Assembly: GCA_964549545.1 (NCBI GenBank)
Contig: CAZJWY010000001.1
Location: 23,122 to 87,121 of the forward strand
From: an uncultured Planctomycetaceae bacterium
GTDB lineage: Bacteria > Planctomycetota > Planctomycetia > Pirellulales > Lacipirellulaceae
Direction: 5' to 3'
DNA length: 64,000 bases
Position numbers and translations under genes: made by a program. Of the stretch, positions 34,892-51,567 are shown one piece after another. The notes beneath the pieces were generated by a model. It worked only from the letters and a program-made list of their open reading frames with translations. It was not told where the DNA came from and did not search any database. Numbering within the stretch: position 1 is the stretch's first letter; the number at the start of each line of letters is the position of its first letter.

Positions 34892-37231
34892 TTGGACCAA
34901 CGACGATTTATAAGTTTTGTGCTGATTTCGCTGGCGGTGTTCTTGCTGGCCGGCCGGCTTTTTCCACCACCGGCGGAAAAAGCAAAGCCGAAAGATGCTG
35001 CCGCGGCAGGCAAGGATGCGAAGGAGGCCCAGGACAACAAGGCTGCACCGGATGCAGCGGCTTCCGATGCCAAGAAGGCTGAGCTGGCCGAGGCGCCTGT
35101 GGCAGCGCCGGTAGCGTTGCCGGCAGTGGCCGCTGCTCCTGTACCGCCCCAATTCGTCACACTAGGCTCGGCCGATCCCGGCAGTGGCTACCGGATGTTG
35201 GTTACGCTGACCAATGCCGGCGCGGCCGTTGTTCGCGCGGAAATGTCGAGCCCTAGGTTTCGCGATCAGGATGATTGGAACGGCTATCCGGGTGGCCTGG
35301 AATTGAAGGATGTGCCGGAGGGGGCGCAGATCCAGGTCATTGGTCCTGGCACACCCGCGGCAAACGCGAAGATGCAAGTCGGCGACGTGATAGTGGGCGT
35401 CGGAAATCCGCAAACCAAAGCGATCAAGAAAGCCGCCGACCTGACGGCCGCGCTCGTCGGCACGAGGCCTGGGCAGGAGATTACCTTGCAGGTTCGCCGT
35501 GGTGATGGCGGCCCGCAACCGGTAACCCTGCGGCTGATGAGGCGTCCGTTCGCGGTCGTGCGTCCGGAGGTGGATAATTATCGAATACGCGATATCGTGC
35601 CGCCTAAGGACTTCGTCGAGCGTCCTTCGTTCTTGCTGACGCTGGCCGAGATCAATGGGAAGCAGTTAAGCGACGACGATGCCGAGCGCCTGGCAGCCGT
35701 GCTCGAGACTGGTAACTGGGAGTTAGTGGCCCACGATGAGAAGTCGGCTACGTTTCGTCGTACGTTGGGTGAATTGAAGTTGGAGGTCGTCAAGAAATAT
35801 ACCCTTCCACAAGTGCCGGCCGATCAACTGGCCGAGGCAGACTACCCCGCGTATCACTTGCAGCTTGATATCGAGCTGCGCAATACCGATGAGAAAGGGC
35901 AGCAGGTTGCTTACCGACTGGATGGCGCGACCGGCATGTCGCTGGAGGGTTGGTGGTACTCGCGCAAGATTAGCAGGCATTGGGGCGGTGGCAGCTTGCG
36001 GGATGTGGTGGTGCGATTCGATGGCAGCCCGACCAATGAGATCGAGAATTCGGACATCATCAAAGGCAAGGCGGAGCCGATGGAAGGGGCCGCACTAGCC
36101 TATGCCGGCGTTGATAGCCAATACTTTTCGGCGGTCCTTGTGCCGCAACTGACGGCGATCAACGACAACTGGTTTCTGAAGACCGAAGCGGTGGTCGTCG
36201 ATGCCGCGGTCGATATTAAGAACGCGCTCTTTGCGAACCCCACCTGTCGGCTTACTCGCAAGTCGATCGACCTGCCACCCGGCCAATCGCATGGCGATTC
36301 TTACCAGGTGTTTATCGGGCCGAAGCGGCCCGGGCTGCTGAGCCAGTATTATCCGCGAAGCGAGAAGTGGCCCGGCGATCCGAATTATTCTCTCAAGGAC
36401 CTGATTTACTTCGGCTGGTTCGGCTCCGTTGCGCGGATCATGCTTGCGATCCTGCACTTCTTGTATGGCATCGTGCGGAACTACGGCATCGCGATTGTTC
36501 TTCTGACGGTGCTCGTGCGCGGGGCCATGTTCCCGATCAGCTACAAGCAAACCAAGAACATGGCGCGGATCCAGGCACTGAAGCCGGAAATGGATCGCAT
36601 CAATGAAAAATACAAGTCCGACATGCAGAAGAAGTCGGCCGCTACTCAGGAGTTGTATCGCAAGCACAACATCAATCCGCTGGGCGGCTGCCTGCCTCTG
36701 TTCTTGCAGATGCCGATTTTCATCGGGTTGTATCGCTCGTTGATGGTCGACGTTGAACTGCGGCAGTCGCCGCTGTTTGGATCAGCAATCCGCTGGTGCT
36801 CAAACCTCGCGGCGCCAGACATGCTTTACAACTGGTCGTCGTTCATGCCGGCGTTTTTAACGCTTGGGCCGCTCGGGCCTTACCTAAACGTCTTTCCAAT
36901 CATCACGGTTGGGATCATGCTTGTGACGCAGAAAATGTCGATGCCGCCGCCGACTAACGAGCAGGCCGCGATGCAGCAGAAGATGATGAAGTACATGATG
37001 ATCTTCTTCGGCTTCATGTTTTACAAAGTCGCGGCCGGGCTCTGCCTATACTTGATTGTCTCAAGCCTATGGGGCATCGCGGAGCGCAAGCTTATGCCGA
37101 AGAACGAGTTGCCAGGCGGCGAGGCGAATGGATCTTCGCCGAGCTTTCCCTCGAACTCACCGCGCGGCGACGGCTCCAATGGAAGTAGCAGTGCGAAGCG
37201 GACGCCAAAAGCCAAGCGTAAGAAAAAGTAG
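34892..37231 (+). CDS. yidC: Membrane protein insertase YidC with PDZ-like insert in the periplasmic domain
   Basis: C-terminal 60-kDa insertase core (LLTVLVRGAMFPISYKQTKNM...PLGGCLPLFLQMPIFIGLY); basic C-tail. Confidence 0.9.
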   Translation: MDQRRFISFVLISLAVFLLAGRLFPPPAEKAKPKDAAAAGKDAKEAQDNKAAPDAAASDAKKAELAEAPVAAPVALPAVAAAPVPPQFVTLGSADPGSGYRMLVTLTNAGAAVVRAEMSSPRFRDQDDWNGYPGGLELKDVPEGAQIQVIGPGTPAANAKMQVGDVIVGVGNPQTKAIKKAADLTAALVGTRPGQEITLQVRRGDGGPQPVTLRLMRRPFAVVRPEVDNYRIRDIVPPKDFVERPSFLLTLAEINGKQLSDDDAERLAAVLETGNWELVAHDEKSATFRRTLGELKLEVVKKYTLPQVPADQLAEADYPAYHLQLDIELRNTDEKGQQVAYRLDGATGMSLEGWWYSRKISRHWGGGSLRDVVVRFDGSPTNEIENSDIIKGKAEPMEGAALAYAGVDSQYFSAVLVPQLTAINDNWFLKTEAVVVDAAVDIKNALFANPTCRLTRKSIDLPPGQSHGDSYQVFIGPKRPGLLSQYYPRSEKWPGDPNYSLKDLIYFGWFGSVARIMLAILHFLYGIVRNYGIAIVLLTVLVRGAMFPISYKQTKNMARIQALKPEMDRINEKYKSDMQKKSAATQELYRKHNINPLGGCLPLFLQMPIFIGLYRSLMVDVELRQSPLFGSAIRWCSNLAAPDMLYNWSSFMPAFLTLGPLGPYLNVFPIITVGIMLVTQKMSMPPPTNEQAAMQQKMMKYMMIFFGFMFYKVAAGLCLYLIVSSLWGIAERKLMPKNELPGGEANGSSPSFPSNSPRGDGSNGSSSAKRTPKAKRKKK

Positions 37232-38820: not shown

Positions 38821-40143
38821 ATGTCGCGACGCTTCCATCCCTGGTCCATAGTCCTTATGGTCGCTTTGGACGTAACCTCGCGGGGACAATCCGCGATTGC
38901 TGAACACAACGCGAGTTACTCGGCGGCCATCGAATCGATCAAGGCCGATGAGCTTTATGACCACGTCGAGGTTCTTTCTGACGACGTATATGAGGGGCGG
39001 GCGGCGGGAAGCCGTGGAGGGCACGCGGCAGCTCAATGGTTGCTCAAACAGATCGAGTCACTTCAACTGAAACCGGCCGGCTCGGGTGGCAGCTTTGTGC
39101 AGACCTTTAGCGACGATTGCCGCAATATTCTTGCTCTACAGCCCGGAGATGATCCACAACTGCGGGACGAGGTGATCGTAATCGGAGCGCATTACGACCA
39201 CGTAGGATATGGCAACAGCAACAACAGTTTTGGTCCTACCGGCAAAATCCACAACGGCGCCGACGACAACGCCAGCGGCACCTCCGTGCTACTTGAGACG
39301 ATGGAGGCTTTCTCTCGCTCGGGATTGAAAACACGGCGAACGATTCTATTTGCGTTTTGGGATGGCGAGGAACGGGGCATGGTTGGCTCGCGGTATTGGC
39401 TCACGCATTCTACGTTGCCTGTCGATCACGTGAAGCTCAACATCACGCTCGATATGGTGGGACGACTACATGATCAGACCTTGTATGTGCTGGGCAGCCG
39501 CAGTGGCTATGGACTTCGGCGACTATTCGGCGGCTCCCGCGATGAGAACCTCTCGCTTAACTTCTCGTGGGACATCAAAGCCAATAGCGATCACTGGCCG
39601 TTCATCGAGCAACGAATCCCGATCGTTCTACTACACACCGGTTTGCACTCCGACTATCATCGGCCAACAGATGATGTGGAAAAAATCAACCGGCAAGGGA
39701 TGCAGGAAGTAGGTCGCTACCTGCTGGCGACCATTGTGCGAGTTGCCAACGAAGATCGTCTACCCAAGTTTCGGTATGCCGTGCGGCGCGAAACGGAAAG
39801 CCTGCGGCGCGCGATGGAGAAGCCATTGCCGCAGGCATCACTGAAAGATTGGCCAGAGGGTGAACCGCGGCCACGGCTGGGGATGTCATGGCGCGAGGAT
39901 GAAGGCGAACCTGGTTCGGTGTTCCTAGTCCGTGTGGTCGATGGATCGCCGGCGGCCGCCGCCGGACTAGAAATCGGAGATCGAATTTACGAACTCGATG
40001 GCCAACCGTTTACCGATGCAGCCAAGTTTCAAAGCGATGTCAAGCATCTATTGGAGTCGCCCCGGCAGAACTTCGAGATGCTCACCGAACGCCGAGGGCA
40101 TGTCCGAATGGTATCGATCAAAATGCAACCGCCTGCCAATTAA
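38821..40143 (+). CDS. M28-family aminopeptidase with C-terminal PDZ domain
   Basis: VIGAHYDHVGYG...NGADDNASG; C-terminal ...VVDGSPAAAAGLEIGDRIYELDG. Confidence 0.85.
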   Translation: MSRRFHPWSIVLMVALDVTSRGQSAIAEHNASYSAAIESIKADELYDHVEVLSDDVYEGRAAGSRGGHAAAQWLLKQIESLQLKPAGSGGSFVQTFSDDCRNILALQPGDDPQLRDEVIVIGAHYDHVGYGNSNNSFGPTGKIHNGADDNASGTSVLLETMEAFSRSGLKTRRTILFAFWDGEERGMVGSRYWLTHSTLPVDHVKLNITLDMVGRLHDQTLYVLGSRSGYGLRRLFGGSRDENLSLNFSWDIKANSDHWPFIEQRIPIVLLHTGLHSDYHRPTDDVEKINRQGMQEVGRYLLATIVRVANEDRLPKFRYAVRRETESLRRAMEKPLPQASLKDWPEGEPRPRLGMSWREDEGEPGSVFLVRVVDGSPAAAAGLEIGDRIYELDGQPFTDAAKFQSDVKHLLESPRQNFEMLTERRGHVRMVSIKMQPPAN

Positions 40144-40375: not shown

Positions 40376-40415
40376 TGGGGATGTGGCGGAATTGGCAGAC
40401 GCGCTGGACTTAGGA
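40376..40415 (+). repeat. attL: 40-bp direct repeat = 5' half of tRNA-Leu (acceptor stem to anticodon loop)
   Basis: Identical to 51363-51402 (tGGGGATGTGGCGGAATTGGCAGACGCGCTGGACTTAGGA). Identity stops right after the anticodon loop. Confidence 0.9.
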
Positions 40416-41033
40416 AAAGGCGATTGGTCCACTAATCCACGGGAAACACGAGAATTCCCGTATCTTTTCGCGATACGACACCCGCTAGAACCCGCTGAAT
40501 CGAACTCATTGGGTGTCGTGGTGTCGGCTCGAAAAAACACGACACCCGCCCTGCACTGACAGGACACTTAGTCAGGTAACGAGCCCGACAATCGCCGTGC
40601 ATAGGGGGAAGCGCACAACGACTGCCGGGCTGAGTCTGTCTTCCATGCTAATCACCGGGGGCGAGGTATCCAGCTTGTCTGATTTTTGAATTTTTTTTTC
40701 GGAGTCTCGATTTCCAAGTAGGGCGGCGGTCCGGGCAAACTATCAGGAGTTGCTAGATCGGGTTCGCTGGAAACATGCAGTTGCTAGGTAGGGGTTATAT
40801 CTCACCCCCCTAGCCGCCACGAGGCCCGGGGGTCCGGTAAAATTTTCCAAACTCAAACATAAACCGATACAGAATTATTCGATCGGTTCTAGCTTGGCTA
40901 TCGAACCATGCCAGTAGAGGCGGGGGTCTGCCCCGTGCATGTATCTGCTCTGCCCTGATTCACGCAAGGTACGCAACGCTCTAGCCGCGACTAACGCGCG
41001 GTAGCAGCAGGGAGAGAACGTAGACGATCAGCG

Positions 41034-41219
41034 CTAACTGAACCGGGCTACGATTGCGTCCAGGTCGGTCTGATCGACAGAGAACATAGTGCCGTGCATG
41101 CAATGGCTCTCCGGCTTAAGGCCGTTCTCTTGCGCCCAGATATGGACGTTCTCACCATTGCGAACACCAGTTAAGGCAACAATCTCTCTAATCGTGCGAA
41201 GAGTTTTCATAACCTTCAT
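41034..41219 (-). CDS. Small HTH protein (AlpA/Xis/Cro-like), 61 aa
   Basis: LRTIREIVALTGVRNGENVHIWAQ resembles an AlpA/excisionase-type HTH. Divergent from the 41446 gene. Confidence 0.5.
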   Translation of the reverse strand: MKVMKTLRTIREIVALTGVRNGENVHIWAQENGLKPESHCMHGTMFSVDQTDLDAIVARFS

Positions 41220-41345
41220 TATAAACCATGCCCTTCAAGTAATCTGTCACGCCGGGCGCGTTGTGTAAATCTTGGGTGTCGGCCGATCGGTCGACGTGAA
41301 ACGCGGGAAATACCGTCGGCGATGTTTCAGTTAGCGCGCATATCT

Positions 41346-41390
41346 TAGGCTTTAGCCTACGCTTGACAATCGGGTTTCTCGGATTAGTCT
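41346..41390 (+). promoter_or_regulatory. Palindromic operator candidate plus promoter for the 41446 operon
   Basis: Perfect palindrome TAGGCTttAGCCTA (41346-41359) abuts TTGACA (41363-41368)-16 nt-TAGTCT (41385-41390). Confidence 0.4.
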
Positions 41391-41445
41391 TGAGATAGAC
41401 GCCAACAATCGGCGTTCGATCACAACTAATGAGGGGACAACGAAG

Positions 41446-41835
41446 ATGAAGCGTGTGAGCGACGGCAAGACCTACTATGAAATTGACGATGACGGGAGCG
41501 TATCGGCGTGTGACGCCCAAGGCGAACCGATTCGGGAGTTCAACCCCGATGACGCTTTCCGCTTAGCGGCGTTGCGCGAACAGGAAGTAGCCGATTGGCT
41601 GGTAGCCGAAGATTTGAAATCGACGCCGGAAACCCGTTTACTAGCGGAGAACGCGTTGCGGCTAGGCCGTCTAAACGCGCGGCTAATCCCGATTACGGAA
41701 GCGATTGCAGACGCTTGTATAAATCGCGGGATGACAGTCGTCGAACCGGCTGCCAGAAAAAACCTTGCCGACATCGCGACAGAGGCGTACAGCGTCGTGA
41801 ATGAGCTGAGAAAGCAAACAGGCGGGGAAAGCTAA
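41446..41835 (+). CDS. Hypothetical protein (129 aa)
   Basis: GAGGGG Shine-Dalgarno upstream. The serine recombinase ATG follows 2 nt after its stop. No motif recognised. Confidence 0.6.
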   Translation: MKRVSDGKTYYEIDDDGSVSACDAQGEPIREFNPDDAFRLAALREQEVADWLVAEDLKSTPETRLLAENALRLGRLNARLIPITEAIADACINRGMTVVEPAARKNLADIATEAYSVVNELRKQTGGES

Positions 41836-41837
41836 CC

Positions 41838-42428
41838 ATGAACAAATACGTCGCGGTATATCCGCGTGTTTCGACTAAGCGCCAAGACCTAGCTAGCCAG
41901 ATGCCTGACCTGGAACACTGGGCAGCAGCACAAGGCGAGCCCGTGCAATGGTACAAAGACAAGTTTACCGGCAAGACACTGGAGCGGCCGGGATGGCAGA
42001 AGCTACAGGCCGCGATTGATCGGGGCGAAGTAAGCAAAGTGGTTGTATGGCGACTCGACCGACTAGGGCGAACCGCCAAGGGACTAACGGCGCTATTCGC
42101 AGACCTACAGGAACGCAAGGTAGGGCTAGTGTCGTTGAAGGATGGCATCGACCTATCGACAGCGGCCGGGCGCATGATGGCGAACGTGCTGGCGTCGGTG
42201 GCTCAGTTTGAAACGGAACTGCGCGCGGAGCGTGTGCGCGCTGGTCAGGCTGCTGCAAAATCCAAGGGCAAAGTCATTGGCGGTGGCAAAGCAGGCAGGC
42301 GAGTGCGCTTGACTGAGGAAAAGGAAGACGCCGTTAAGCGTCTGCACAAGTCGGGCGCGTCGATTACAAAGATAGCCAAGACGCTTCAACTGTCACGCCC
42401 TACGGTTTACAAGGTGCTGGACGGCTAG
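41838..42428 (+). CDS. Small serine recombinase (resolvase/invertase family) with C-terminal HTH
   Basis: YPRVSTKRQD (catalytic Ser), VVWRLDRLGR, ...AQFETELRAERV..., C-terminal SITKIAKTLQLSRPTVYKVL. Confidence 0.9.
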   Translation: MNKYVAVYPRVSTKRQDLASQMPDLEHWAAAQGEPVQWYKDKFTGKTLERPGWQKLQAAIDRGEVSKVVVWRLDRLGRTAKGLTALFADLQERKVGLVSLKDGIDLSTAAGRMMANVLASVAQFETELRAERVRAGQAAAKSKGKVIGGGKAGRRVRLTEEKEDAVKRLHKSGASITKIAKTLQLSRPTVYKVLDG

Positions 42429-42484
42429 CGCGCCCAGCAAACATACTTTTCAGTTTCACCTTTTCACCTATTGGAGCCTCATCT

Positions 42485-42709
42485 ATGAATGACACCACAA
42501 GCAAACTCTGTGTTCACACCATCATGGTCGATTCGCCAGAGGGGATGGTCGCCGTGACTATGCGCGACGGGCGAGTCATGTTGGACTACCACGAGATTAG
42601 CGTCTTTGGCGAACCGCACTGGCCGGATGAAACCAGCACTCTAGCCGGGCTCTTAGGCTGCACTGAGCCAGAAGCCCGCGCCCTTGTCGGCATGCTAACA
42701 GATATGTAG
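42485..42709 (+). CDS. Hypothetical protein (74 aa)
   Basis: GGAG 8 nt upstream of the ATG; followed by a canonical intrinsic terminator. Confidence 0.55.
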   Translation: MNDTTSKLCVHTIMVDSPEGMVAVTMRDGRVMLDYHEISVFGEPHWPDETSTLAGLLGCTEPEARALVGMLTDM

Positions 42710-42732
42710 GCTCCATTGCCTACACTTGCTAG

Positions 42733-42768
42733 CCGTCCACTCGATTCGTCGAGTGGACGGTTTTTTTT
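42733..42768 (+). terminator. Intrinsic terminator
   Basis: 12-bp perfect stem CCGTCCACTCGA / TCGAGTGGACGG, TTCG tetraloop, then T8. Confidence 0.85.
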
Positions 42769-42816
42769 GTGCGCCGGGAAGTCTGGCAGGCGGTCGAGAC
42801 GGGCGGGTTATATACA

Positions 42817-42933
42817 CTTGGCAAACCACTCGGCACCACTGGTCACCATGGGTCGCACCTAGGCAAACCACTGGCTACCTTTGGTTCACCACGACGGCAC
42901 CTTGGCAAACCATTGGGATAACTCTGGCATTCC
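42817..42933. repeat. 2.5 tandem 42-bp units = five or six TGG-N(3-4)-CCA sites phased every 21 bp
   Basis: Sites start at 42819, 42840, 42861, 42882 and 42903, plus a degenerate one at 42925. Core is CT(T/A)GGCAAACCA(C/T)T alternating with TGGT(T)CACCA. Confidence 0.75.
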
Positions 42934-43050
42934 GCGAACATGCTACCCGTTCCCTACCGGCCGCGAAGTTTGAAGCGTCCCGACTAATCCGAGCCATCGC
43001 CGATAACGACTGGCGAGTTCCCGAAAATACCACTCTCTGAGGCAGACACG

Positions 43051-46000
43051 ATGGACATTAGCAAATTCGATTTCAGCGCCTTGGACGCGGCTGACGCCGC
43101 GCCAGCAACGAGCATGGACTTCAGCGCACTCGACCTGCCCGAAGATGACGCTTCCGTATATTGGGGCGGCCGTCAAGTTTCCAAGTCGGCGATCTTGAAA
43201 GCAGCCGAACAACGCGGCGTCTCGCCCGATGCGATCATGCGTCTCGATACGTGGCAAGGCAAGACCGAAGATTGGTTAGCTAAGCGACCACTCGGCAACG
43301 TCGCTTTGCGAGTGACCGAAGGTTTCCAAGGTGTTGCTGACACAGTAGTTGGCGGTGTGGCACGGGCGGCTGGCTACCCCGATGTAGCTCGTAACGTCGC
43401 GGCGAACCGTCGCAAGCGCGAAGAATTCTTGTCAATGGTTGAGAAGGGCGGCGACATTGAACGAACGCTCGGTCAACGTGGCGCGCGCATCTTTAACAAC
43501 AGTGTGCAGTCAGCCACCGAAGTTGGGTTGGTCGGCATCAGTAAGGCACCGCTCGCAGTGTATTCCTATGTCGTCGGCTCTGAATTCGAGCGAGCGATGG
43601 ACGATGGCGAACAGCACGGCTTAGAAGGCAGTGACCTTGTTTCTTATGCTGGCCGTCGTGCCGCTATTGAAGGCACCATGTCTCTGCTAATGGGCAAGTT
43701 AGCAAAGAAAGCTGGCGCATATACGCTGGCGGAAAGTGTTAACCCCGCCGCTGGCAACGCCATTCGTAAGTTTCTCGACGCGCCCGACGTTAAGAGCAAA
43801 CTAGTCGCGGCCTCTAAGAGTCTTGGTGGCATGGCTGCCGAAGGTGTCGAGGAACTCCTAACGAACGGCGCTATCCAGGCTAACGACCTGTCTTTCGGCG
43901 TGCGTGACGGTTTCGATTTCAATGAACTGCTCGACGCCGGTTTGTCAGGCGTGACGATGCGCGGCATTAGTCATGTTCGTGATCTGCATGGCGTGCTGAA
44001 TGATTTCGTCAAGAACAAGTTGCCCCACGTAGCCGAGGGCACGAACGCCGCTATGGTTGACTTGGAACGTGGTGTCAACCCGTTCCTTGTGAAAGACCTG
44101 GACGGTGCCGAGTTCGATCGGCAGACGGGCCGCGAGGGCACGACCCCCGAATTCCGTCTGTCTTACCGCGATGCTCTCAATCATTACATGTCGGAAGCCC
44201 GAGCCAACGGCGAGACGGGCTCTCTCGAACGATTAGAGCGGGATGCGCTTGCCATTCACGAGGAAGAACGTCAACGCACTGCGCGCATTCAAGCGAGCAA
44301 GGATAAGGCAGCCGCACAAAAGCAAAACGGCGTGGTAGGCGAGTCGCAAGTAAAAGTAGAGCCGGTGGAAGCGCACGAGCAACCGTCACTTACTGCCGAC
44401 CAACGGGCTACGTTTAACCTGCGTGACTTTGAGGCATTGGTCGTAGAGCCGAAGATTGGTGAGGCTCTGACGCAACCCCAACCCAAGGTAAACCCGTATC
44501 TCCGCGCCCCGTGGGAATCGGAAACACGCGGCCAGCGGCGCGTACGTCGGTTATCCGAGCAAGTCGAGACACACAAGGCGACTATTAAGACATTGCGCTC
44601 CGAAGCGGTCGCCAACAAGCGACTAACGCGCGAGCAACAACAAGCAGCGCTTGAACTGGTGCGGGAAAACATCCCTGCCGAAGATCGTCACAAGTATTTT
44701 CAAGGCGTCATCGAAAGCACTCGCCCGAGCGCCATTAACAAACTGCTGGACCGCGTAGATACCTACATTGGCCAACGTGACCACAGTTTAGCCGTGCAGA
44801 ACCTCAAGGAATCTATCCGCAAGGCTACTAATTTACGCCCTGAATTCGCTCAGCAGGTGCAAAAGTCGCTCAATTCCATCGACCTGAAACGCTTTCGGCA
44901 TCGGGAAGTAGCCGAGACGCTACGGCAATGGCAGCAGGACAACCCGCAAGCCATTATCTCGCCCAAAGAGCAAGGGCTTATCGACCGGCTGGCGCAACAA
45001 AACATCCATAGCATGACGGCAGACGATGTACGGGCGCTGGCGTCACACGTCGAAAGCCTTGCTTACCAAAGCAAGCTGAAAGATACGCTGATCGGTAACG
45101 CGGAAGCGGCAAGCGTGCGCGATACCGCCGACAACATAGTTCGCGAGATTGCGACGGCCCCCCGTAAGGAAATGAAGTCGGACAGTCTGCTAAGTACGTC
45201 GGATGATAACACAACGCGCACGATCGGCAGCTTGGCGCTGCACGAGGTGGCCGAACGCCCCGAGGTAACGCTACGCTCGCTCAGTTCCGAGTTGAGCAAC
45301 CAGATATACGAACCAATCCGCAAGGCGCGCAGCCGGTTCAAGTTGCGCATGGCCAATACGCGCCAATTTATGTCCGACCTGTTTAACAGTGTCGGATTGG
45401 AACATGAGAATTCACTTGCCAAGAGCGTGGCCTATCGAACCGGGCTTCCGAGTACGAAGCTGGAAGGTTGGCGGAGTCACTTGCGAGAGATAAACGGCAC
45501 TCGATTGACACGCGGCGAAGCATTGTGGCTGGCTCTGTCGTCAAAAGACCCTGACGGCATTAAAAACCTGATGGAACATGGCGCGGAGTTGAGCCAAGGC
45601 CGCAAGCTGGCACCCGTCGACCCGCATACACTTGCCCACCTGTTTGATTTCATCGGTCCCGAGGGCGAAACGTGGGTTAATGGCGCGTTCGAGCACCTTA
45701 ATACTTATGTCATTGACGGTGTGAACACGGCTAATGAAAAGATGACCGGCCGACCGCTTACTGAGAAGCGCAATGTTGTTCCGCTTGTGCTGGCCGATGA
45801 CGATTACGCCAAGTTGGTCAGCAAGGGGCGAGCGGGCGAAGTAGAAGCCTTGGCCGATAGTTACGGTCACCTCAAACACCGCGAGGGCGGCGGCCGGGCT
45901 TTGCGTATTCCCGACAACATGGACGCGATTGATATGGTTATGAGCCATGCCGACCGCATGCACCGTTTTGCCGAGTACAGCGTGCCCGCTCGCAATGCTG

Positions 46001-47307
46001 AACTGTTATTGAACGACGCCGATCTCAAGCAGTCGATCAAGGAAAAGAACGGTCACAAAGGTTATGACCAGATTGTCGACGCCGTGCGCTCTGAGGTGGC
46101 GGGCTATCCGCCCGTGGACGGTGCCACGAAGAATATAGCCGCCTTGAATCACGCCGCAGCCGGTGCGTTGATCGTCGCCAAGATACCCGTTATGGCCAAG
46201 CAGCCGCTCGATATGTTGGTCGCTGCCGCAATGGATGAAGGTGGCATAAGCCACTTGGGCAAGGGTCTCGACGAGTTAGCGGCTCGTGGTCCTGCCGCCG
46301 TGCTCACGGAAATGAAGTCGGTACTAGGTCAGCACTCCGGCGAATGGCAGGGTCGTTACGAGGCAGGCAACTACTCGGGCGAGGTGACGAGTGGGTTTAT
46401 CCGCCAGCGTAGCCACTTCCGCCCGTCAACCTTGATCGAGCATGGCGCGGACTCTTTGCAAAAGGCGGAAATGCTAACCGCCGCCATGCCGAACTACTTG
46501 GCAGCCAAGCAAGCTGCCCGTGAACATTTCCGGTTGCAAGCGGGCGACCACAAGGTTTATCTCGACACGCCGGAATGGATAGAGCACGTTGTCGACGGCT
46601 GGGAACGCAAAACAGTGCGCGGTTCTAATTCATCGGATGGCATGGAATTGAGCGGCGCGCTGCGGTTCGCCAAGAAAAACCCGCTCTACAGTCTGGTGGC
46701 TAACTTCTACAACCAAGCCGGTAAAATCTATTCGCTGTTCCCGATGGCTCAGCAGGAGTATCAGAAGGGCAACCACAAGCGGGCCGGTCAGATTGCGGCC
46801 ACCGGCTTAGGTGTCGTGTTGGCCGACGCCATTTTGAGCACGGCACTGGCGACGGGCGACCAGGAAAAGAAACATTCCTTGCCATATCGCACGCTCGCCC
46901 GGTTCGTCGGCGGAATAGCCAGTTTGTTCCCGGCAGGCGGTCAAGAACTTGCCAAGCAAGTTATCGCCCCCGCGTTCGGCATGTCCCGCAGCGGCGGCAA
47001 CCCCATCATGTTGCTTGATCTTGGAATAGGCGCAACGCGCGGCATAACGTCGCTTGCTACGCAGTTGTTGGCCGACGCCGATCGTTCTCTGAAACCGCAA
47101 GACATGTACAAGGCGTGGATTGATATAGGCTACTCCGCTGGCCCACTTCTCGCAATCCCAACGCCCGGTTTCATCGACCTCGGCAAGCGCATTAAAGCAG
47201 GCACGCCCTTCCCCGGTCTCACCGAAGCCGAGCCCAAGCCGGAGCCATTTCGGGAAACGCCGAAACGCCATCGCAAGAGTTTATCAGGTCTGTTTGACAA
47301 CCACTAA
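43051..47307 (+). CDS. Giant ORFan protein (1418 aa)
   Basis: Uninterrupted 4.26-kb ORF with GAGG upstream. N-terminal duplicated DFSALD motif. Long helical middle. Gly/Ala-rich hydrophobic segments in the last ~170 aa. No catalytic motif recognised. Confidence 0.85.
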   Translation: MDISKFDFSALDAADAAPATSMDFSALDLPEDDASVYWGGRQVSKSAILKAAEQRGVSPDAIMRLDTWQGKTEDWLAKRPLGNVALRVTEGFQGVADTVVGGVARAAGYPDVARNVAANRRKREEFLSMVEKGGDIERTLGQRGARIFNNSVQSATEVGLVGISKAPLAVYSYVVGSEFERAMDDGEQHGLEGSDLVSYAGRRAAIEGTMSLLMGKLAKKAGAYTLAESVNPAAGNAIRKFLDAPDVKSKLVAASKSLGGMAAEGVEELLTNGAIQANDLSFGVRDGFDFNELLDAGLSGVTMRGISHVRDLHGVLNDFVKNKLPHVAEGTNAAMVDLERGVNPFLVKDLDGAEFDRQTGREGTTPEFRLSYRDALNHYMSEARANGETGSLERLERDALAIHEEERQRTARIQASKDKAAAQKQNGVVGESQVKVEPVEAHEQPSLTADQRATFNLRDFEALVVEPKIGEALTQPQPKVNPYLRAPWESETRGQRRVRRLSEQVETHKATIKTLRSEAVANKRLTREQQQAALELVRENIPAEDRHKYFQGVIESTRPSAINKLLDRVDTYIGQRDHSLAVQNLKESIRKATNLRPEFAQQVQKSLNSIDLKRFRHREVAETLRQWQQDNPQAIISPKEQGLIDRLAQQNIHSMTADDVRALASHVESLAYQSKLKDTLIGNAEAASVRDTADNIVREIATAPRKEMKSDSLLSTSDDNTTRTIGSLALHEVAERPEVTLRSLSSELSNQIYEPIRKARSRFKLRMANTRQFMSDLFNSVGLEHENSLAKSVAYRTGLPSTKLEGWRSHLREINGTRLTRGEALWLALSSKDPDGIKNLMEHGAELSQGRKLAPVDPHTLAHLFDFIGPEGETWVNGAFEHLNTYVIDGVNTANEKMTGRPLTEKRNVVPLVLADDDYAKLVSKGRAGEVEALADSYGHLKHREGGGRALRIPDNMDAIDMVMSHADRMHRFAEYSVPARNAELLLNDADLKQSIKEKNGHKGYDQIVDAVRSEVAGYPPVDGATKNIAALNHAAAGALIVAKIPVMAKQPLDMLVAAAMDEGGISHLGKGLDELAARGPAAVLTEMKSVLGQHSGEWQGRYEAGNYSGEVTSGFIRQRSHFRPSTLIEHGADSLQKAEMLTAAMPNYLAAKQAAREHFRLQAGDHKVYLDTPEWIEHVVDGWERKTVRGSNSSDGMELSGALRFAKKNPLYSLVANFYNQAGKIYSLFPMAQQEYQKGNHKRAGQIAATGLGVVLADAILSTALATGDQEKKHSLPYRTLARFVGGIASLFPAGGQELAKQVIAPAFGMSRSGGNPIMLLDLGIGATRGITSLATQLLADADRSLKPQDMYKAWIDIGYSAGPLLAIPTPGFIDLGKRIKAGTPFPGLTEAEPKPEPFRETPKRHRKSLSGLFDNH

Positions 47308-47347
47308 GAACCACTAGTCCCCCCTTTTCTTTCGGAGAGTAAACGCA

Positions 47348-48154
47348 ATGAGTACAGAGCCAGAATCACCGCAGCAGAATGACACCCCAGACACTTCGCA
47401 GCAGATATACGGCGGTTCGCTTGCCGGTGGCATAGCGGCATCGCTTGGCGCGAAGAAAGAGCCAAAGCCGTACACCGATCAGGGGCGTGCCTACATTCAC
47501 GCCATGGCTGACGCGACACTTGACCACCGGGAAGCCAAGGCGGCGGTGGAGCGGGATGTTTTCTCCACTGCCATCGAATCCTACAACGCGGCAACAAACG
47601 GCACGAGCAACATCCACGAGGCCTTGCGCGCCGAAGCGGCCGAAGTCGGCGAAGTCAGCAACAAGGATTTCGATGAAGCCCGGTTCGCCAATGAACTCGG
47701 ATTTCAGGCGGACCAATTCAAGCAACTTGGTTTCGAGTCTTACGACGATGCACACTCGTCCGTATCGAAGATGCTTCACAACATGACCGAGAGTGTCGGC
47801 GATGATGGCATTTTGGAAGACTACGCCGCTTTAATGGGCGAGCCCGAGTTGCGGCAGCGGTTGCACACGGAAATAAACTCTTGGCGGTCCCCACGGTTCG
47901 GGCGATCGACTGAGGAGCGCACCGAAGACCAACAATATCACGTCAATCAGATTATCGGCGATATGATTCGCCTGACAAAAGCCCTCGTTCGGCAAGGTCG
48001 ACCGGCCCCGGTCGTTGAGCAAGCATTGCGCCGGGCGCGGTTGGTACGTGATGCCGACTACAAGCCTTCTCACCGCGACCACAAGCCGGAGAAGATCAGC
48101 ACGGCTAATCAGTTCCGAAACATTCACGAACTGTACCAGAACAACCCCTTCTAA
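47348..48154 (+). CDS. Hypothetical protein (268 aa), acidic, with N-terminal glycine-zipper-like segment
   Basis: GGSLAGGIAASLG near the N-terminus. GGAGAG lies about 10 nt upstream of the ATG. Co-directional, 40 bp after the giant ORF. Confidence 0.7.
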   Translation: MSTEPESPQQNDTPDTSQQIYGGSLAGGIAASLGAKKEPKPYTDQGRAYIHAMADATLDHREAKAAVERDVFSTAIESYNAATNGTSNIHEALRAEAAEVGEVSNKDFDEARFANELGFQADQFKQLGFESYDDAHSSVSKMLHNMTESVGDDGILEDYAALMGEPELRQRLHTEINSWRSPRFGRSTEERTEDQQYHVNQIIGDMIRLTKALVRQGRPAPVVEQALRRARLVRDADYKPSHRDHKPEKISTANQFRNIHELYQNNPF

Positions 48155-48209
48155 AACGTCTGTTCCCCGAGGGGCACGGAGGCCCATCTTTTCATAGAGA
48201 GCGAAAACA

Positions 48210-48533
48210 ATGACCCCTGAACATTTTGACGGTTACCTGATTCACGACACGCCACTAGGGCCAGCTATTCGGTTCAAAGGCGGCAAGATTATGCAGTCCG
48301 GCCGCATTGTCGACGGCCGAACTGTGCCATCGGGCCGGTACATGCTCGTCATGCCCAGTCGCCATGACCCTGAATCGCGCCGGTTGCGTTCGTTGCTGGC
48401 CAACATCGGCCGATGGACGGAAGACGATGGCGGCGGCGATTACCGCTTAACCTTCGCTGCCGATGATTTCCACTTAATTGCCGAAATAGTGCAGCCGTTC
48501 AAGGCGGATTACGTCGGCAACTACAACATTTAA
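48210..48533 (+). CDS. Small paralog 1 of 4 (107 aa)
   Basis: Shares the IRFKGGKIMQSGRIVDG...PS ... RW..D ... F ... IAEIV pattern with 48558, 48940 and 49227. Confidence 0.7.
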   Translation: MTPEHFDGYLIHDTPLGPAIRFKGGKIMQSGRIVDGRTVPSGRYMLVMPSRHDPESRRLRSLLANIGRWTEDDGGGDYRLTFAADDFHLIAEIVQPFKADYVGNYNI

Positions 48534-48557
48534 CTTTTCTGAAAGGAACAAACAGCC

Positions 48558-48917
48558 ATGGGCAAGCCCTTCAATTTTGTAGAGACGTACCCTGAGTACG
48601 AATTTGTTGGCGACGTATCGCGTAGCCCGCACATCCCTTTTCGATACGGCAAGATTTATCAACCCGGCCGCATTACTGGCGATCGTTTCGAGCCATCGGA
48701 TAGCAACTTCCTCAACTTGGTATTATCGACGCGCCGGGATAGCCCGGATTGCAATAGCATACGCGCGTTGCTTGAGTCGAATCAGGTCGGGCGGTGGGTT
48801 ACCGATACTGTCGGGCGGCCGGAACAGGTATTCGAGTTCCATCGAAAACATTTTGACCGCGTTGCCGAGATTGTGAAAGCGAACAAGCGCGCCGACGTTG
48901 GCGCGGACAGTATCTAA
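48558..48917 (+). CDS. Small paralog 2 of 4 (119 aa)
   Basis: IPFRYGKIYQPGRITGDRFEPS; closest to paralog 4. Confidence 0.75.
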   Translation: MGKPFNFVETYPEYEFVGDVSRSPHIPFRYGKIYQPGRITGDRFEPSDSNFLNLVLSTRRDSPDCNSIRALLESNQVGRWVTDTVGRPEQVFEFHRKHFDRVAEIVKANKRADVGADSI

Positions 48918-48939
48918 CTTTTCTGAGAGGTGAACAACT

Positions 48940-49224
48940 ATGCCTGATTGGTACGTGCCAAAAGAGTTCTCATTCGTGCAAGGCAATACGATGACTTTCA
49001 AGTATGGGGAGGTTTGGTTTCCCCGCGACTATCCCGGCGAGGCTCGCGTTTACATCCAAGGCCACGATGACGCCGACGCGGAGTTGTCTTTGCTGCGGTC
49101 ACGGCTAATGGGCTACTCCTTCGCGATTGGGAGCTACGGTAGTTTTCAAGAGTTACGGTTTGCCCCGGTTATGGCACCGATGTTGGCGCGGACAATATCT
49201 AACTTTTCTGAAAGGAACAAATAG
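48940..49224 (+). CDS. Small paralog 3 of 4 (94 aa), divergent and possibly frameshifted at the 3' end
   Basis: MTFKYGEVWFPRDYPG. The family-like terminus ...GTDVGADNI* is encoded in another frame (49143-49202). Confidence 0.5.
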   Translation: MPDWYVPKEFSFVQGNTMTFKYGEVWFPRDYPGEARVYIQGHDDADAELSLLRSRLMGYSFAIGSYGSFQELRFAPVMAPMLARTISNFSERNK

Positions 49225-49226
49225 CT

Positions 49227-49565
49227 ATGAGCAAGCCAGCAACATTCGCAGAGAAATACCACGACTACGAAGTCATTGACGACCCCAAAAACGGGCCATA
49301 CATCCCCTTTGAGTTCGGCAAGATTTATCAACCGGGCCGCGTTGTCGACGGTCAATTCGAGCCCTCAAACGGCGGGCAACTCGAACTGACCATATCGAAT
49401 CGCGACGACAACGCCGACTGCAAGGCCATGCGACACGCGCTGGCGTGGGAGGGCCGTCGGATTAGCTGCGATGACGGGTCAATGCGAGCGATGACATTCC
49501 ATCGCAATAACTTCAACCGCATTGCCGGGATTGTGAAACCACAAAAACGATCGGTTGCGGTTTAG
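49227..49565 (+). CDS. Small paralog 4 of 4 (112 aa)
   Basis: IPFEFGKIYQPGRVVDGQFEPS ... FHRNNFNRIAGIVKP. Confidence 0.75.
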   Translation: MSKPATFAEKYHDYEVIDDPKNGPYIPFEFGKIYQPGRVVDGQFEPSNGGQLELTISNRDDNADCKAMRHALAWEGRRISCDDGSMRAMTFHRNNFNRIAGIVKPQKRSVAV

Positions 49566-49591
49566 TCCCACTCATTCCCACAGAGGTAATC

Positions 49592-50212
49592 ATGCGACTG
49601 CGCCACTTAGCCAATCAGCTTAAGACTATCGCCTACGTTCTCGATAGTTTCCGCACGAACGGGGTTTCGTCGCTCTCCGCCCCTGTCGTGCTGGCCGATT
49701 TAACTAAGCTGGCGCAGTTGCTTTTCTCTGTCGACCTACTTCTAGCCGATCGTGGGCCAGCCGATATACGCCATCGGCTAACGCGATGCCGTGACGCTGT
49801 GACTGTGTATGTCGCGGAAGTCACCACCGCCGCCATGCTTGGCGATGTTGAACAGGCGAGCAAGCCGACAAGGCATCGGCTAGCTGCTGCCCTTGGGCAG
49901 ATTGAGGATTGCACTCGAACTCTGCTTAAGTTGCTACGTCCGAAAAGATCGAAGCAGCGCAGCGGTTCAGAGTCGCCCGTTACACTTAGTCCGCCCCAGG
50001 TTGCCAAGGCCCTGAGAGTGAGCCCCGACACTGTGCTCAGTTGGATTCGTACGAAGCAGTTACCCGCTGCGAACGTGGCGACTGGCCCGCGTCCGAGGTG
50101 GGTCGTACAGCGGCCCGACCTGGATACATTCCTACAATCACGACGGCCGCAATCGCAGCCGGCACGTAAGAGAAGTAAGCCAGTCGGGGGCTTTAGAAAA
50201 TATCGAGACTAG
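49592..50212 (+). CDS. Xis/MerR-like HTH protein with ~130-aa N-terminal extension
   Basis: C-terminal LSPPQVAKALRVSPDTVLSWIRTKQLPA...RWVVQRPDLDTFL resembles the excisionase-family HTH. 20-bp convergent overlap with int. Confidence 0.65.
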   Translation: MRLRHLANQLKTIAYVLDSFRTNGVSSLSAPVVLADLTKLAQLLFSVDLLLADRGPADIRHRLTRCRDAVTVYVAEVTTAAMLGDVEQASKPTRHRLAAALGQIEDCTRTLLKLLRPKRSKQRSGSESPVTLSPPQVAKALRVSPDTVLSWIRTKQLPAANVATGPRPRWVVQRPDLDTFLQSRRPQSQPARKRSKPVGGFRKYRD

Positions 50213-51281
50213 GCAGCTTGCCAAGATACCACTGGCGTACGTGGTTCGTGCATTGAAGTAGCTGCTCATCGTAGATCAGTTGGCGGTACGTTGCTGACAT
50301 ATCGTCGCTCGCCGGTACATGGCCCATGACAAGATCAACCACAGCTTGAGTTACGCCGCTTGTGCCTGCGATTGTCTCGAATGTTCGCCGTAACGAATAG
50401 AACTCTGTCACGTCTTTGACATAGAAGTCGTCGACCAGTTTGCGAAAGTGGTAAGCTATGTTGCGCCTGTTCCACTTGCCCGCGAATACCTTGCCGTTGT
50501 TCGTGGCGGTGCGGAGTGCCTTGGCAGTTTCGGGCCAGAGTGGGCTACGCCGTTCGATACCAGTCTTCTCACGGTGGAAGTTATGCCAGCCGTTCTTTAG
50601 GTCTACCCGCTCCGTGGGCAGGTCGCAGCAATCCTTTGGCCCGAACCCGCAGTTGATCCCCAGCAAGATCATACCGCGTATCTCGCCCTTGGAAGTCTTC
50701 ACAATCTCGCGTAGCTGCTTCGACGTGAACAGCCGCACCTTGCTGTTTTTGATTTGCCGTAGGATACGTGCGGCCGGTGCGCGTAGCTCGTCTTCAAAGT
50801 CTAGCGTGACCCGAAACTTACGGGCCATCTTTAGTATCATGCGGGCGACTGTCAGCCGTCGCTTGATCGTGACCGCCCCCAGTTGCTTTGTCTTACCCTG
50901 CCCTAATGCTTCGCGCAGTTGTCCGAAGTCGGCCGGTGTCAACGAGTCTAGTCGGCGGTGCTTGCCCCAAGCGGCCATGACATCGCACACGGTCTCGTAC
51001 TCGTCATAGGTGACCTGAGAGATTTCCCCCAGTCTCAGGGCGCGATCCTTTGGCCCGAGGAAGGTGTCGAGTAGATCGGCAACCTTCGGCTCGTCCGTGG
51101 GGGGACGTAGGCCAGCATAGAGGTAGTCACGCTGCCGGAGGAATGCCGATAAGGCTTCGCCGGAGTCTGCCCACGGGCCGAAGTATTTCAATTTCCCCCG
51201 TATCTTGCAGCACCATTGCCCGTTGTTATGGGCAAACAGGGGGAACTCGTGGTATGGTTTATCTGGCTTCTGCATACTCAA
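50193..51281 (-). CDS. int: Tyrosine recombinase / integrase
   Basis: C-terminal YSLRRTFETIAG ... LVMGHVPASDDMSATY (R..H/Y-x-x-R...H...Y pattern). N-terminal GQWCCKIRGKLKYFGPW motif, as I recall it from planctomycete integrases. Adjacent to attR. Confidence 0.9.
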   Translation of the reverse strand: MSMQKPDKPYHEFPLFAHNNGQWCCKIRGKLKYFGPWADSGEALSAFLRQRDYLYAGLRPPTDEPKVADLLDTFLGPKDRALRLGEISQVTYDEYETVCDVMAAWGKHRRLDSLTPADFGQLREALGQGKTKQLGAVTIKRRLTVARMILKMARKFRVTLDFEDELRAPAARILRQIKNSKVRLFTSKQLREIVKTSKGEIRGMILLGINCGFGPKDCCDLPTERVDLKNGWHNFHREKTGIERRSPLWPETAKALRTATNNGKVFAGKWNRRNIAYHFRKLVDDFYVKDVTEFYSLRRTFETIAGTSGVTQAVVDLVMGHVPASDDMSATYRQLIYDEQLLQCTNHVRQWYLGKLPSLDIF

Positions 51282-51327
51282 TCCTAGCTCCGGGTGTCGG
51301 CGCGGGTGTCGTTAGGATTAAGTATGT

Positions 51328-51356
51328 TTGCCAAAAGTCAAAAAACAACGTAAATT
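51328..51356 (+). promoter_or_regulatory. Element-borne promoter-like sequence upstream of the intact tRNA-Leu
   Basis: TTGCCA-17 nt-TAAATT ending 7 nt before tRNA position 1. Same architecture as 40333-40361. Confidence 0.45.
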
Positions 51357-51363
51357 TAAGCCT

Positions 51364-51448
51364 GGGGATGTGGCGGAATTGGCAGACGCGCTGGACTTAG
51401 GATCCAGTTCCTTCACCGGAGTGCAGGTTCAACTCCTGTCATCCCCAC
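51364..51448 (+). tRNA. tRNA-Leu (anticodon UAG), type II with long variable arm
   Basis: Acceptor GGGGATG/CATCCCC. Anticodon stem CTGGA/TCCAG with loop CTTAGGA. Variable arm TTCCTTCACCGGAGT. T-arm GCAGG-TTCAACT-CCTGT. CCA not fully encoded. Confidence 0.9.
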
Positions 51449-51567
51449 CTGTTTTTAAGGCGTTTTTGGAATCATTGGTTTCACCAGCCGGCGGAGTGTT
51501 ACCCAAAGTGTTACCCACTGCCGCCCACAACGCTTCGGCCGTCGCCTGGGCGTTCCGGCCAACGTAA

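Follow-up and report, generated by a model that had tools for sequence, protein, structure and literature searches.

The window analysed here is a stretch of 64,000 nucleotides from contig CAZJWY010000001.1, which belongs to an uncultured planctomycete of the order Pirellulales. Between positions 48210 and 49565 it holds a tandem array of small open reading frames (ORFs). The array consists of three intact paralogs and one degenerate or hybrid unit. It is carried by an apparently intact, phage-derived integrative element of 11 kb, inserted at a tRNA-Leu gene of its host. Most likely, the array encodes a lineage-specific family of small, soluble, cytoplasmic alpha/beta proteins. Under the functional reading that we favour, at a probability of roughly 35%, these proteins are small binding subunits or adaptors. 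Together with the product of a neighbouring gene, here called w268, they would form a module that serves the life cycle of the element itself.

All four ORFs of the array lie on the + strand, and the gaps between successive ORFs are 24, 22 and 2 nucleotides (nt). Three of them are intact and have a long form: paralog 1 (48210-48533, 107 amino acids), paralog 2 (48558-48917, 119 amino acids) and paralog 4 (49227-49565, 112 amino acids). The remaining one, unit 3 or "paralog 3" (48940-49224, 94 amino acids), is a degenerate, hybrid or short-form copy. An earlier, sequence-only reading of this DNA had listed four consecutive same-strand ORFs of these lengths, and its coordinates and lengths are exact. 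An identical copy of paralog 1 is found on an independent Logan contig (L010). The GC contents of the three codon positions follow the coding-type pattern GC1>GC2<GC3 in all four ORFs, as they do in the neighbouring genes.

Paralogs 2 and 4 can be aligned by BLASTP at 43% identity (E 9e-30) and form the closest pair in the array, as the sequence-only reading had noticed. Paralog 1 is recognised by its ORF and by its BLASTP matches to paralog 4 (E 4e-15) and paralog 2 (E 1e-11). Smith-Waterman comparisons between members of this trio give z values of 17-49 against shuffled sequences. The array had been described as four divergent paralogs. This description holds for paralogs 1, 2 and 4, with E values of 1e-11 to 9e-30, and fails for unit 3, whose protein reaches z <=2 against every member of the family. 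Significant similarity between adjacent copies, as expected of a tandem paralog array, is found for paralogs 1, 2 and 4 and is missing for the unit 3 protein.

Two motifs are common to paralogs 1, 2 and 4. One is an N-terminal hairpin motif, F.[YF]GKI.Q.GR[IV].., and the other is a C-terminal motif, F..[IV]A.IV[KQ]P.K. Both had been proposed earlier, along with a central motif, DC[NK][SA][IM]R. The central motif occurs in paralogs 2 and 4 only.

Selection on the intact copies can be estimated by comparing them in pairs. Between paralogs 1, 2 and 4, the proportion of nonsynonymous differences (pN) is 0.35-0.45 and that of synonymous differences (pS) is 0.61-0.69. The ratio of nonsynonymous to synonymous rates (dN/dS) is about 0.35-0.40, with dS near saturation. 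Because pN lies well below pS, the comparison indicates that the three paralogs are under purifying selection. The array proteins are hydrophilic, with negative hydropathy, an isoelectric point (pI) of 5.7-7.8 and few or no cysteines. Near-neutral pI and negative hydropathy are more in keeping with soluble binders than with proteins of the membrane or with classic DNA binders.

Unit 3 differs from the other copies over most of its length. Its nucleotide body is 49-53% identical to theirs, and the baseline given by shuffled sequences is 51%. When a hidden Markov model (HMM) of the family is built without unit 3, unit 3 scores no better than its own shuffled versions. An hhalign comparison of unit 3 with the family gives P=0.049 over 67 collinear columns. 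The conserved hairpin, GR.VDG.FEPS, is missing.

The 3' end of unit 3 is closely related to that of paralog 2. Its final 26 coding nt, together with the spacer that follows, are 90% identical to the 3' end of paralog 2. A deletion of 16 nt relative to paralog 2 has shifted the C-terminal frame. As a result, a paralog 2-like end (..DVGADNI followed by a stop) lies out of frame, and the ORF crosses the spacer to a TAG stop codon at 49222-49224, two bases ahead of the start codon of paralog 4. The most conserved feature of the family over all its members, remote ones included, is a C-terminal helix with a basic tail (F..VA.IVKP.KR), and this feature is destroyed in unit 3. Judged by its protein sequence, unit 3 cannot be shown to be a paralog; it appears to be tied to the array by junction DNA and a few collinear motifs. 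It is probably non-functional.

The junctions between the array genes, all on the + strand, are much alike. Junction 1-2 (48531-48560) consists of a stop codon, CTTTTCTGAAAGG with the Shine-Dalgarno-like AAGGA, and ATG. Junction 2-3 lies at 48915-48942. Junction 3-4 (49200-49229) starts at the ancestral TAA stop codon at 49200, which is now out of frame within unit 3. A leader, CTTTTCTGARAGG, is found ahead of paralog 2, unit 3 and paralog 4, followed in each case by 10-12 nt and ATG; a looser version, CTTTTCATAGAGAG, is found ahead of paralog 1. The junction motif TAACTTTTCTGARAGG..ATG marks each of the three internal junctions and has no further occurrence in the window.

Junctions 1-2 and 3-4 are identical at 28/30 positions, and the coding bodies are 55-62% identical. 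This conservation implies selection on the spacer as a ribosome-binding site, recombination or gene conversion at the junctions, or both; the two are inseparable here. Recombination at the junctions is suggested by the 3' end of unit 3, which is par2-like and out of frame. Successive units start 348, 382 and 287 bp apart. The array was made by tandem duplication of a unit of ~290-380 bp, comprising a gene and its Shine-Dalgarno-containing spacer.

The conserved neighbour of the small family is w268, an acidic protein of 268 amino acids (47348-48154, + strand). It has no family match above threshold in Pfam, PHROG or NCBIfam.

Relatives of the small family were sought among ~15 billion proteins overall. 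With profiles A1 and A3, word-indexed searches across 5.8 billion clusters retrieved solely the window's own proteins and one other protein, P0012. When 1.84 billion representatives were scanned in a filter-only HMMER pass, a single true relative emerged, again P0012. All small-family proteins form singleton clusters. No match to the small family, P0012 or w268 came from DNA-pattern and tblastn scans, which covered GTDB genomes, IMG/VR and JGI metagenomes. Paralog 4 has no match in GenBank phages, and the small family has none in Pfam, PHROGs, NCBIfam, PADLOC or PDB sequences. The queries put to Pfam, PHROGs, NCBIfam and PADLOC were the four array ORFs, P0012, the giant protein described below, w268 and the small ORFs nearby. 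Three long, repetitive surface proteins (P0011, P0013 and P0014), also picked up by the HMMER pass, were rejected as repeat and composition artefacts, with many short stretches in Cys/Thr-rich repeats.

P0012 is a natural fusion of two small-family domains. It has 204 amino acids, is encoded by a single ORF at positions 168-782 of locus L008, and was seen in two independent samples. The hairpin is missing from its N-terminal half, which is a short form. Its C-terminal half is a long form, closest to paralog 4, which is its best match (tblastn E 2e-12). The fusion of a short and a long form mirrors the window's adjacent short unit 3 and long paralog 4, which lie 2 nt apart. A frameshift fusion of unit 3 and paralog 4 that would mimic P0012 is ruled out, since the frame of paralog 4 has stops upstream of its ATG.

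The genes around P0012 resemble those around the array. In L008 and L009, the order is the C-terminus of a w268-like gene, P0012, a gene with an HTH_17 domain (HTH, helix-turn-helix) and a tyrosine integrase gene. The w268 homolog in L008 has a conserved tail, ..KPGHRTHK..STA..F..NIH.L.Q.N.W.

A more distant arrangement can be found in L003 and L004. Here a w268 homolog of 279 amino acids (BLASTP E 9e-14 for L003) is followed by an 86-amino-acid gene, a remote, short-form member of the small family with 99 amino acids, and a giant gene. The giant gene is a homolog of the one that encodes a protein of 1418 amino acids upstream of w268 in the window. The 99-amino-acid gene lies directly upstream of the giant gene (9279-9578 of L003) and is also present in L005. 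In a search of every ORF of the fetched loci it reaches an HMM E value of 6e-4, and hhalign aligns it with the family over 85 collinear columns (P 4e-5, probability 70%). It shares the region of the C-terminal helix and basic tail, here GG.EQ..F.....VAEI.K..RR. By these matches, the gene is a probable homolog of the small family.

Copy number varies among these elements, from about one through two (fused) to four. In all nine phage-type loci that carry the giant gene, neither a member of the small family nor a w268 homolog is found. It follows from this sampling that the small family is apparently confined to the lineage of integrative elements, where it accompanies w268 in 3/3 sampled lineages. 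Other candidates were tested and rejected. The 109-amino-acid gene of L003 and the genes of 122-146 amino acids in the phage-type loci are not related to the small family, nor does a 74-amino-acid ORF upstream of the giant gene belong to it. The gene of 209-261 amino acids upstream of the phage-type giant gene is unrelated to w268.

The giant protein (43051-47307, + strand, 1418 amino acids) is a homolog of a phage virion-module protein. It has no domain in Pfam, PHROG, NCBIfam or PADLOC, its profile finds nothing meaningful among PDB sequences, and it has no match in GenBank phages, PLSDB plasmids or IMG/VR. Five full-length homologs were found, with 39-66% identity. Six giant-protein homologs are collinear from residue ~25 to ~1400 with few gaps, and their mean pairwise identity is 0.29-0.56 in each block of 100 residues up to residue 1400. 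Because this collinear identity continues so far, no C-terminal module has been replaced among them, and the giant protein has no swappable C-terminal toxin module.

Homologs of the giant protein occur in two contexts. The first comprises nine phage-type loci (L001, L002, L006, L007 and L091-L095), of which L001, L002, L006 and L007 were annotated. In these four, the giant gene is preceded by two conserved genes of ~209-261 and 384-418 amino acids. Where downstream sequence exists in the phage-type loci, it is followed by a conserved gene of 122-146 amino acids. Genes for tail-tubular-like, tailspike or virion-structural proteins, the large terminase, DNA polymerase A and a methyltransferase lie near it in L001, L002 and L007. 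By position, the giant protein would resemble the large internal-virion or ejection proteins of podophages, a likeness drawn from synteny only.

The second context is that of small integrative elements without capsid or terminase genes, comprising L003/L004/L005 as well as the window itself. In L003/L004/L005, the element includes a resolvase, an HNH gene, the giant gene, a 109-amino-acid gene, an HTH_17 gene and an integrase. The window's giant protein is 66% identical to the phage-type copy of L001/L002, versus 42% to the copy of the L003-type element. A copy closer to that of a phage than to that of another element would fit a satellite-helper relationship.

These findings bear on the suggestion that the array is a set of immunity genes in a polymorphic-toxin locus, with each small protein directed against a toxin domain of the 1418-amino-acid protein. 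The layout has a superficial resemblance to such a locus, with a very large ORF followed by small, diverged paralogs on the same strand. Nevertheless, the suggestion fails on each defining feature that was tested, namely the domains of the giant protein, its C-terminus and synteny. The giant protein lacks any domain for secretion, delivery or toxicity, and its collinear conservation in five homologs extends to the C-terminus. Elsewhere its gene lies in phage structural modules, and in the window the unrelated w268 gene separates it from the array. No orphan toxin fragments lie between the paralogs, where the spacers are 2-24 nt. In the nine phage-type loci the small genes are not associated with the giant ORF, an outcome that the sequence-only reading had itself named as grounds for rejecting its idea. 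Immunity to the giant protein is therefore an extremely improbable role for the array.

A structure model of paralog 2 was made with AlphaFold2 from an alignment of six sequences. It has a predicted local distance difference test score (pLDDT) of 84.4 and a predicted template modelling score (pTM) of 0.79. The model consists of a meander of five strands, a helix, two strands and a second helix. A Foldseek search with this model gave best E values of 0.05 against PDB and 0.018 against BFVD, with template modelling (TM) scores <=0.48, none of them significant. Its weak neighbours, which are leads only, are kinase N-lobes, type III secretion system (T3SS) chaperone or YbjN-like proteins, and LAGLIDADG half-domains.

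The two-domain model of P0012 has a pTM of 0.51 and a disordered linker, and the packing of the domains is not confident. It has no match in PDB at E<0.01 or TM>=0.5. Its weak neighbours, again leads only, are the C-terminal domain of T4 MotA and uL6. The predicted fold of the small family has no significant match in PDB or BFVD and would thus be without a counterpart there.

Several lines of evidence suggest that the small family and w268 form a functional module. The two genes travel together in each of three element-type lineages, and their linkage has outlasted extreme divergence and a shift of place with respect to the giant gene. The array shares an operon with a giant, virion-type gene. 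Conservation in the family is highest in a C-terminal amphipathic helix and its basic tail, and a natural two-domain fusion exists. Thus, the small proteins may be protein-binding subunits or adaptors. Since two copies are naturally fused in one relative, the small proteins may also form homo- or hetero-oligomers.

The module may serve the transfer of the element, or it may exploit or block a related helper podophage. The paralogs would not serve to protect the cell against the giant protein. Their duplication and divergence would widen the range of partner variants that can be bound.

Five points weigh against this proposal. Neither homology nor fold gives a functional handle in Pfam, PHROG, NCBIfam, PADLOC, PDB sequences, or Foldseek searches of PDB and BFVD. 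Homology of the L003 member is no more than probable (hhalign probability 70%), and its gene is found upstream rather than downstream of the giant gene. The linkage with w268 is drawn from three element-type lineages, of which two are known from short metagenomic contigs. The P0012 model, with its pTM of 0.51 and disordered linker, gives oligomerisation no structural support. Finally, the slot next to the excisionase and integrase genes in L003 holds an unrelated 109-amino-acid ORF and looks like a variable cargo slot.

This last point leads to the main rival explanation. The paralogs may be "moron"-type cargo in a variable slot, with a role in anti-defence, counter-defence or superinfection exclusion, each copy acting against a different host or competitor target. 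Small, orphan, diversifying genes do lie directly upstream of an HTH gene near the end of the element, both in the window and in L008. The unrelated 109-amino-acid orphan in the same slot of L003 is what would be expected of a site with high turnover, and the family is extremely rare, with a copy number that varies among elements (about one, two fused, four). However, nothing in PADLOC, PHROGs or BFVD matches the family. The HTH gene is better read as an excisionase, given its HTH_17 and phrog_66 matches and its place beside the integrase. Provided that the L003 gene is a true homolog, the family has been kept with w268 in three very diverged lineages (giant protein 42% identical), which is unusual for cargo. 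Pairwise selection is purifying and not diversifying, within the limits that saturation sets on the test. Cargo is a possible role for the array, and a somewhat doubtful one.

To return to the element that carries the proposed module of w268 and small proteins, its ends are marked by 40-nt perfect direct repeats, 10,987 bp apart from start to start. The left attachment (att) repeat (40376-40415, + strand) is a 5' fragment of tRNA-Leu and is 100% identical to the right one (51363-51402, + strand), which is the 5' part of an intact tRNA-Leu gene. This gene (51364-51449, + strand, anticodon TAG) is the integration target. It was found by ARAGORN, matches Rfam RF00005 at 59.8 bits and is the sole tRNA in the window. 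Rfam finds no RNA element in the junctions or the rest of the element, only this tRNA. The left of the att repeats is occupied by chromosomal housekeeping genes, namely YidC, MnmE and an M28 peptidase. By its MnmE, which is about 51% identical to that of the nearest species representative, the host belongs to the Pirellulales within Planctomycetota.

Within tRNA-Leu, the att repeat covers the stretch from position -1 up to and including the anticodon region, which belongs to the 5' and not to the 3' part. The 5' half of a tRNA gene is an unusual integration site. Because of it, the intact tRNA-Leu at the right end has element DNA, on the integrase side, as its upstream flank.

The genes of the element can be read in order along the + strand. 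A 129-amino-acid ORF is followed by a serine recombinase of the resolvase/invertase type (41838-42428, 196 amino acids, PF00239 E 1e-39), which is 40% identical to the resolvase of the related element L003. Then come a 74-amino-acid ORF and a strong intrinsic terminator (42731-42762, + strand), which has a 14-bp stem followed by T8 and closes the upstream unit. The repeats described below, the giant gene, w268 and the four array ORFs come next. The last gene on this strand encodes an excisionase-like HTH_17 protein (49592-50212, 206 amino acids; PF12728 E 7e-10, phrog_66 E 3e-8). The label of phrog_66 is 'excisionase and transcriptional regulator'; TIGR01764 scores 21.6 bits on the 206-amino-acid protein, below its cutoff. 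On the - strand lies a tyrosine integrase (50193-51281, 362 amino acids; PF00589 E 1.7e-9, phrog_1 E 3e-25). Capsid, portal and terminase genes have no match within 40416-51362.

All the features of a tRNA-integrated element are present, namely an integrase beside a tRNA, att repeats that take in a portion of this tRNA, and an excisionase-like gene. The sequence-only reading had offered, as another option, a diversified cassette on a mobile element. As far as the setting is concerned, this option is borne out by the tRNA integration, the att repeats, the integrase and the excisionase-like gene.

From the giant gene to the HTH_17 gene, the genes are tightly packed on the same strand, and no strong terminator was found between them. 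The array is so read as part of a long, late-type operon of the element. Between the terminator and the giant gene lies a non-coding stretch of ~280 nt that holds three direct repeats of ~17 nt, YTWGGCAAACCAYTSG, at an exact spacing of 42 nt (42817-42917, + strand). These repeats are a candidate for the regulated promoter or operator region of the operon formed by the giant gene, w268, the array and the HTH gene. A 104-amino-acid ORF with a TTG start (42726-43040) spans the region of the terminator and repeats and is probably not a gene.

Some further features of the neighbourhood can be noted. The 206-amino-acid excisionase-like protein is unusually long, with an N-terminal extension of ~130 amino acids before HTH_17; its counterparts have 74 amino acids in L008 and 101 in L003. 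The 3' end of its gene overlaps the convergent integrase gene by 20 nt. Outside the element, the YidC homolog (34892-37231, 779 amino acids) has a PDZ domain at residues ~135-205, before its periplasmic and 60KD_IMP domains. The M28 peptidase adjacent to it (38821-40143) also ends in a PDZ domain.

Repeated sites raise the question of DNA binding. The small proteins could be nucleic-acid-binding regulators, in which a beta-sheet saddle with flanking helices forms dimers on repeated sites such as the repeats spaced by 42 nt. Candidate operator sites of this kind are present, and the family has conserved Arg/Lys positions and a basic C-terminal tail. Most of its non-significant fold neighbours are nucleic-acid binders, including the MotA C-terminal domain (1kaf/5jlt, target-normalised TM 0.45-0.48), LAGLIDADG meganucleases and uL6. 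Like LAGLIDADG enzymes, the family has both single-domain members and a fused two-domain form. Yet all structural matches have TM <0.5 and none reaches E<0.01. The proteins have a near-neutral pI (5.7-7.8) and neither a LAGLIDADG nor an HTH motif, and four paralogous regulators would be unusual for an element of 11 kb. A regulatory role is unlikely on balance.

Alternatively, the array might be evolutionary debris, that is, duplicated ORFs of a decaying prophage remnant that have no current function. Unit 3 is clearly degenerate, and the element lacks capsid and terminase genes, as such a remnant might. Against decay, copies 1, 2 and 4 are intact with pN<pS despite near-saturated synonymous sites, their fold model is confident and their ribosome-binding spacers are conserved. 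The att repeats are perfect, and the ORFs of the integrase, the excisionase-like protein and the giant protein are uninterrupted. The same small-element architecture is found in L003, at just 42% identity of the giant protein. Functionless decay applies to unit 3 and not to the three intact copies; for the array as a whole it is very unlikely.

A more specific version of the module proposal can also be stated. The element would be a novel planctomycete phage satellite that carries its own copy of the giant internal-virion or ejection-type protein of a helper podophage. The paralogs and w268 would then be a module for helper exploitation or interference, with a fold absent from PDB and BFVD, and duplication and junction recombination would let it keep pace with variant helpers. 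Taken with all its parts, this version is improbable.

The locus has some broader meaning. Mobile elements of Planctomycetota are almost uncharted, and a literature search on planctomycete integrative elements found nothing relevant. Here such an element of 11 kb is cleanly delimited and apparently intact, with perfect att sites. Its sole recognisable phage-type gene encodes the 1418-amino-acid protein, which is also found in uncultured podophage-like contigs. Neither w268 nor the small family has relatives outside this element lineage, and the two would together make up a two-component module. Should the element be a satellite, this module would be a candidate for a novel means of exploiting or blocking a helper phage. 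If the small genes are anti-defence cargo, they represent a new family of inhibitors. The locus also corrects a tempting but wrong annotation, since a giant ORF followed by small paralogs need not represent a toxin and the immunity genes against it. Small-protein families that are lineage-specific and tandemly expanded on an integrative element are familiar in kind. The small family itself, its predicted fold and the type of its host element have no described counterpart in the libraries searched.

Four groups of known systems can be compared with the array. The class I chaperones of T3SS and the YbjN-like fold resemble the small proteins in size and in having an alpha/beta sandwich. They appear among the Foldseek neighbours (1xkp_C, 4g6t_A and 6vu7, TM 0.33-0.41). 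The matches nevertheless have E 0.14-0.37 and TM <0.5 with no sequence similarity, and membership is not supported.

Polymorphic toxin/immunity loci, such as CdiA-CT/CdiI, Rhs and LXG, share with the window a very large ORF followed by small, diverged, related ORFs on the same strand. They differ from it in several ways. No delivery domain (TPS/FHA, Rhs/YD, LXG or PAAR) and no variable C-terminal module is found here. In those loci the immunity gene directly follows the toxin gene, whereas here the unrelated w268 intervenes. The family does not co-occur with the giant gene in phage-type loci, and its probable member in L003 lies upstream of that gene.

In anti-CRISPR operons, which occur on prophages and islands, small acr genes are followed by an HTH gene called 'aca'. 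The array is like these and other anti-defence operons in that small orphan genes stand in a row upstream of an HTH gene near the end of the element, with variable copy number and content. It is unlike them in having no match to a known anti-defence family in PHROG, BFVD, Pfam or PADLOC, and the resemblance is positional only. The HTH gene here is excisionase-like and paired with an integrase. Also, if the L003 homology is accepted, the family has been retained with w268 across very diverged elements.

Phage satellites are the fourth group. Satellites such as P4, the phage-inducible chromosomal islands (PICIs) and the PICI-like elements (PLEs) encode small proteins that interfere with the helper or redirect its capsids, for instance Sid and Psu of P4 or CpmA/B of the Staphylococcus aureus pathogenicity islands (SaPI). 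The element differs from these in that no replication module was recognised and no homology to a known satellite protein was found. The likenesses are its size of 11 kb, its att site, its integrase and excisionase-like genes, and its lack of capsid and terminase genes. One of its genes is 66% identical to a virion-module gene of podophage-like contigs, and small, element-specific proteins share the operon with it. The layout of the element would thus fit a satellite, with a degraded prophage as the alternative.

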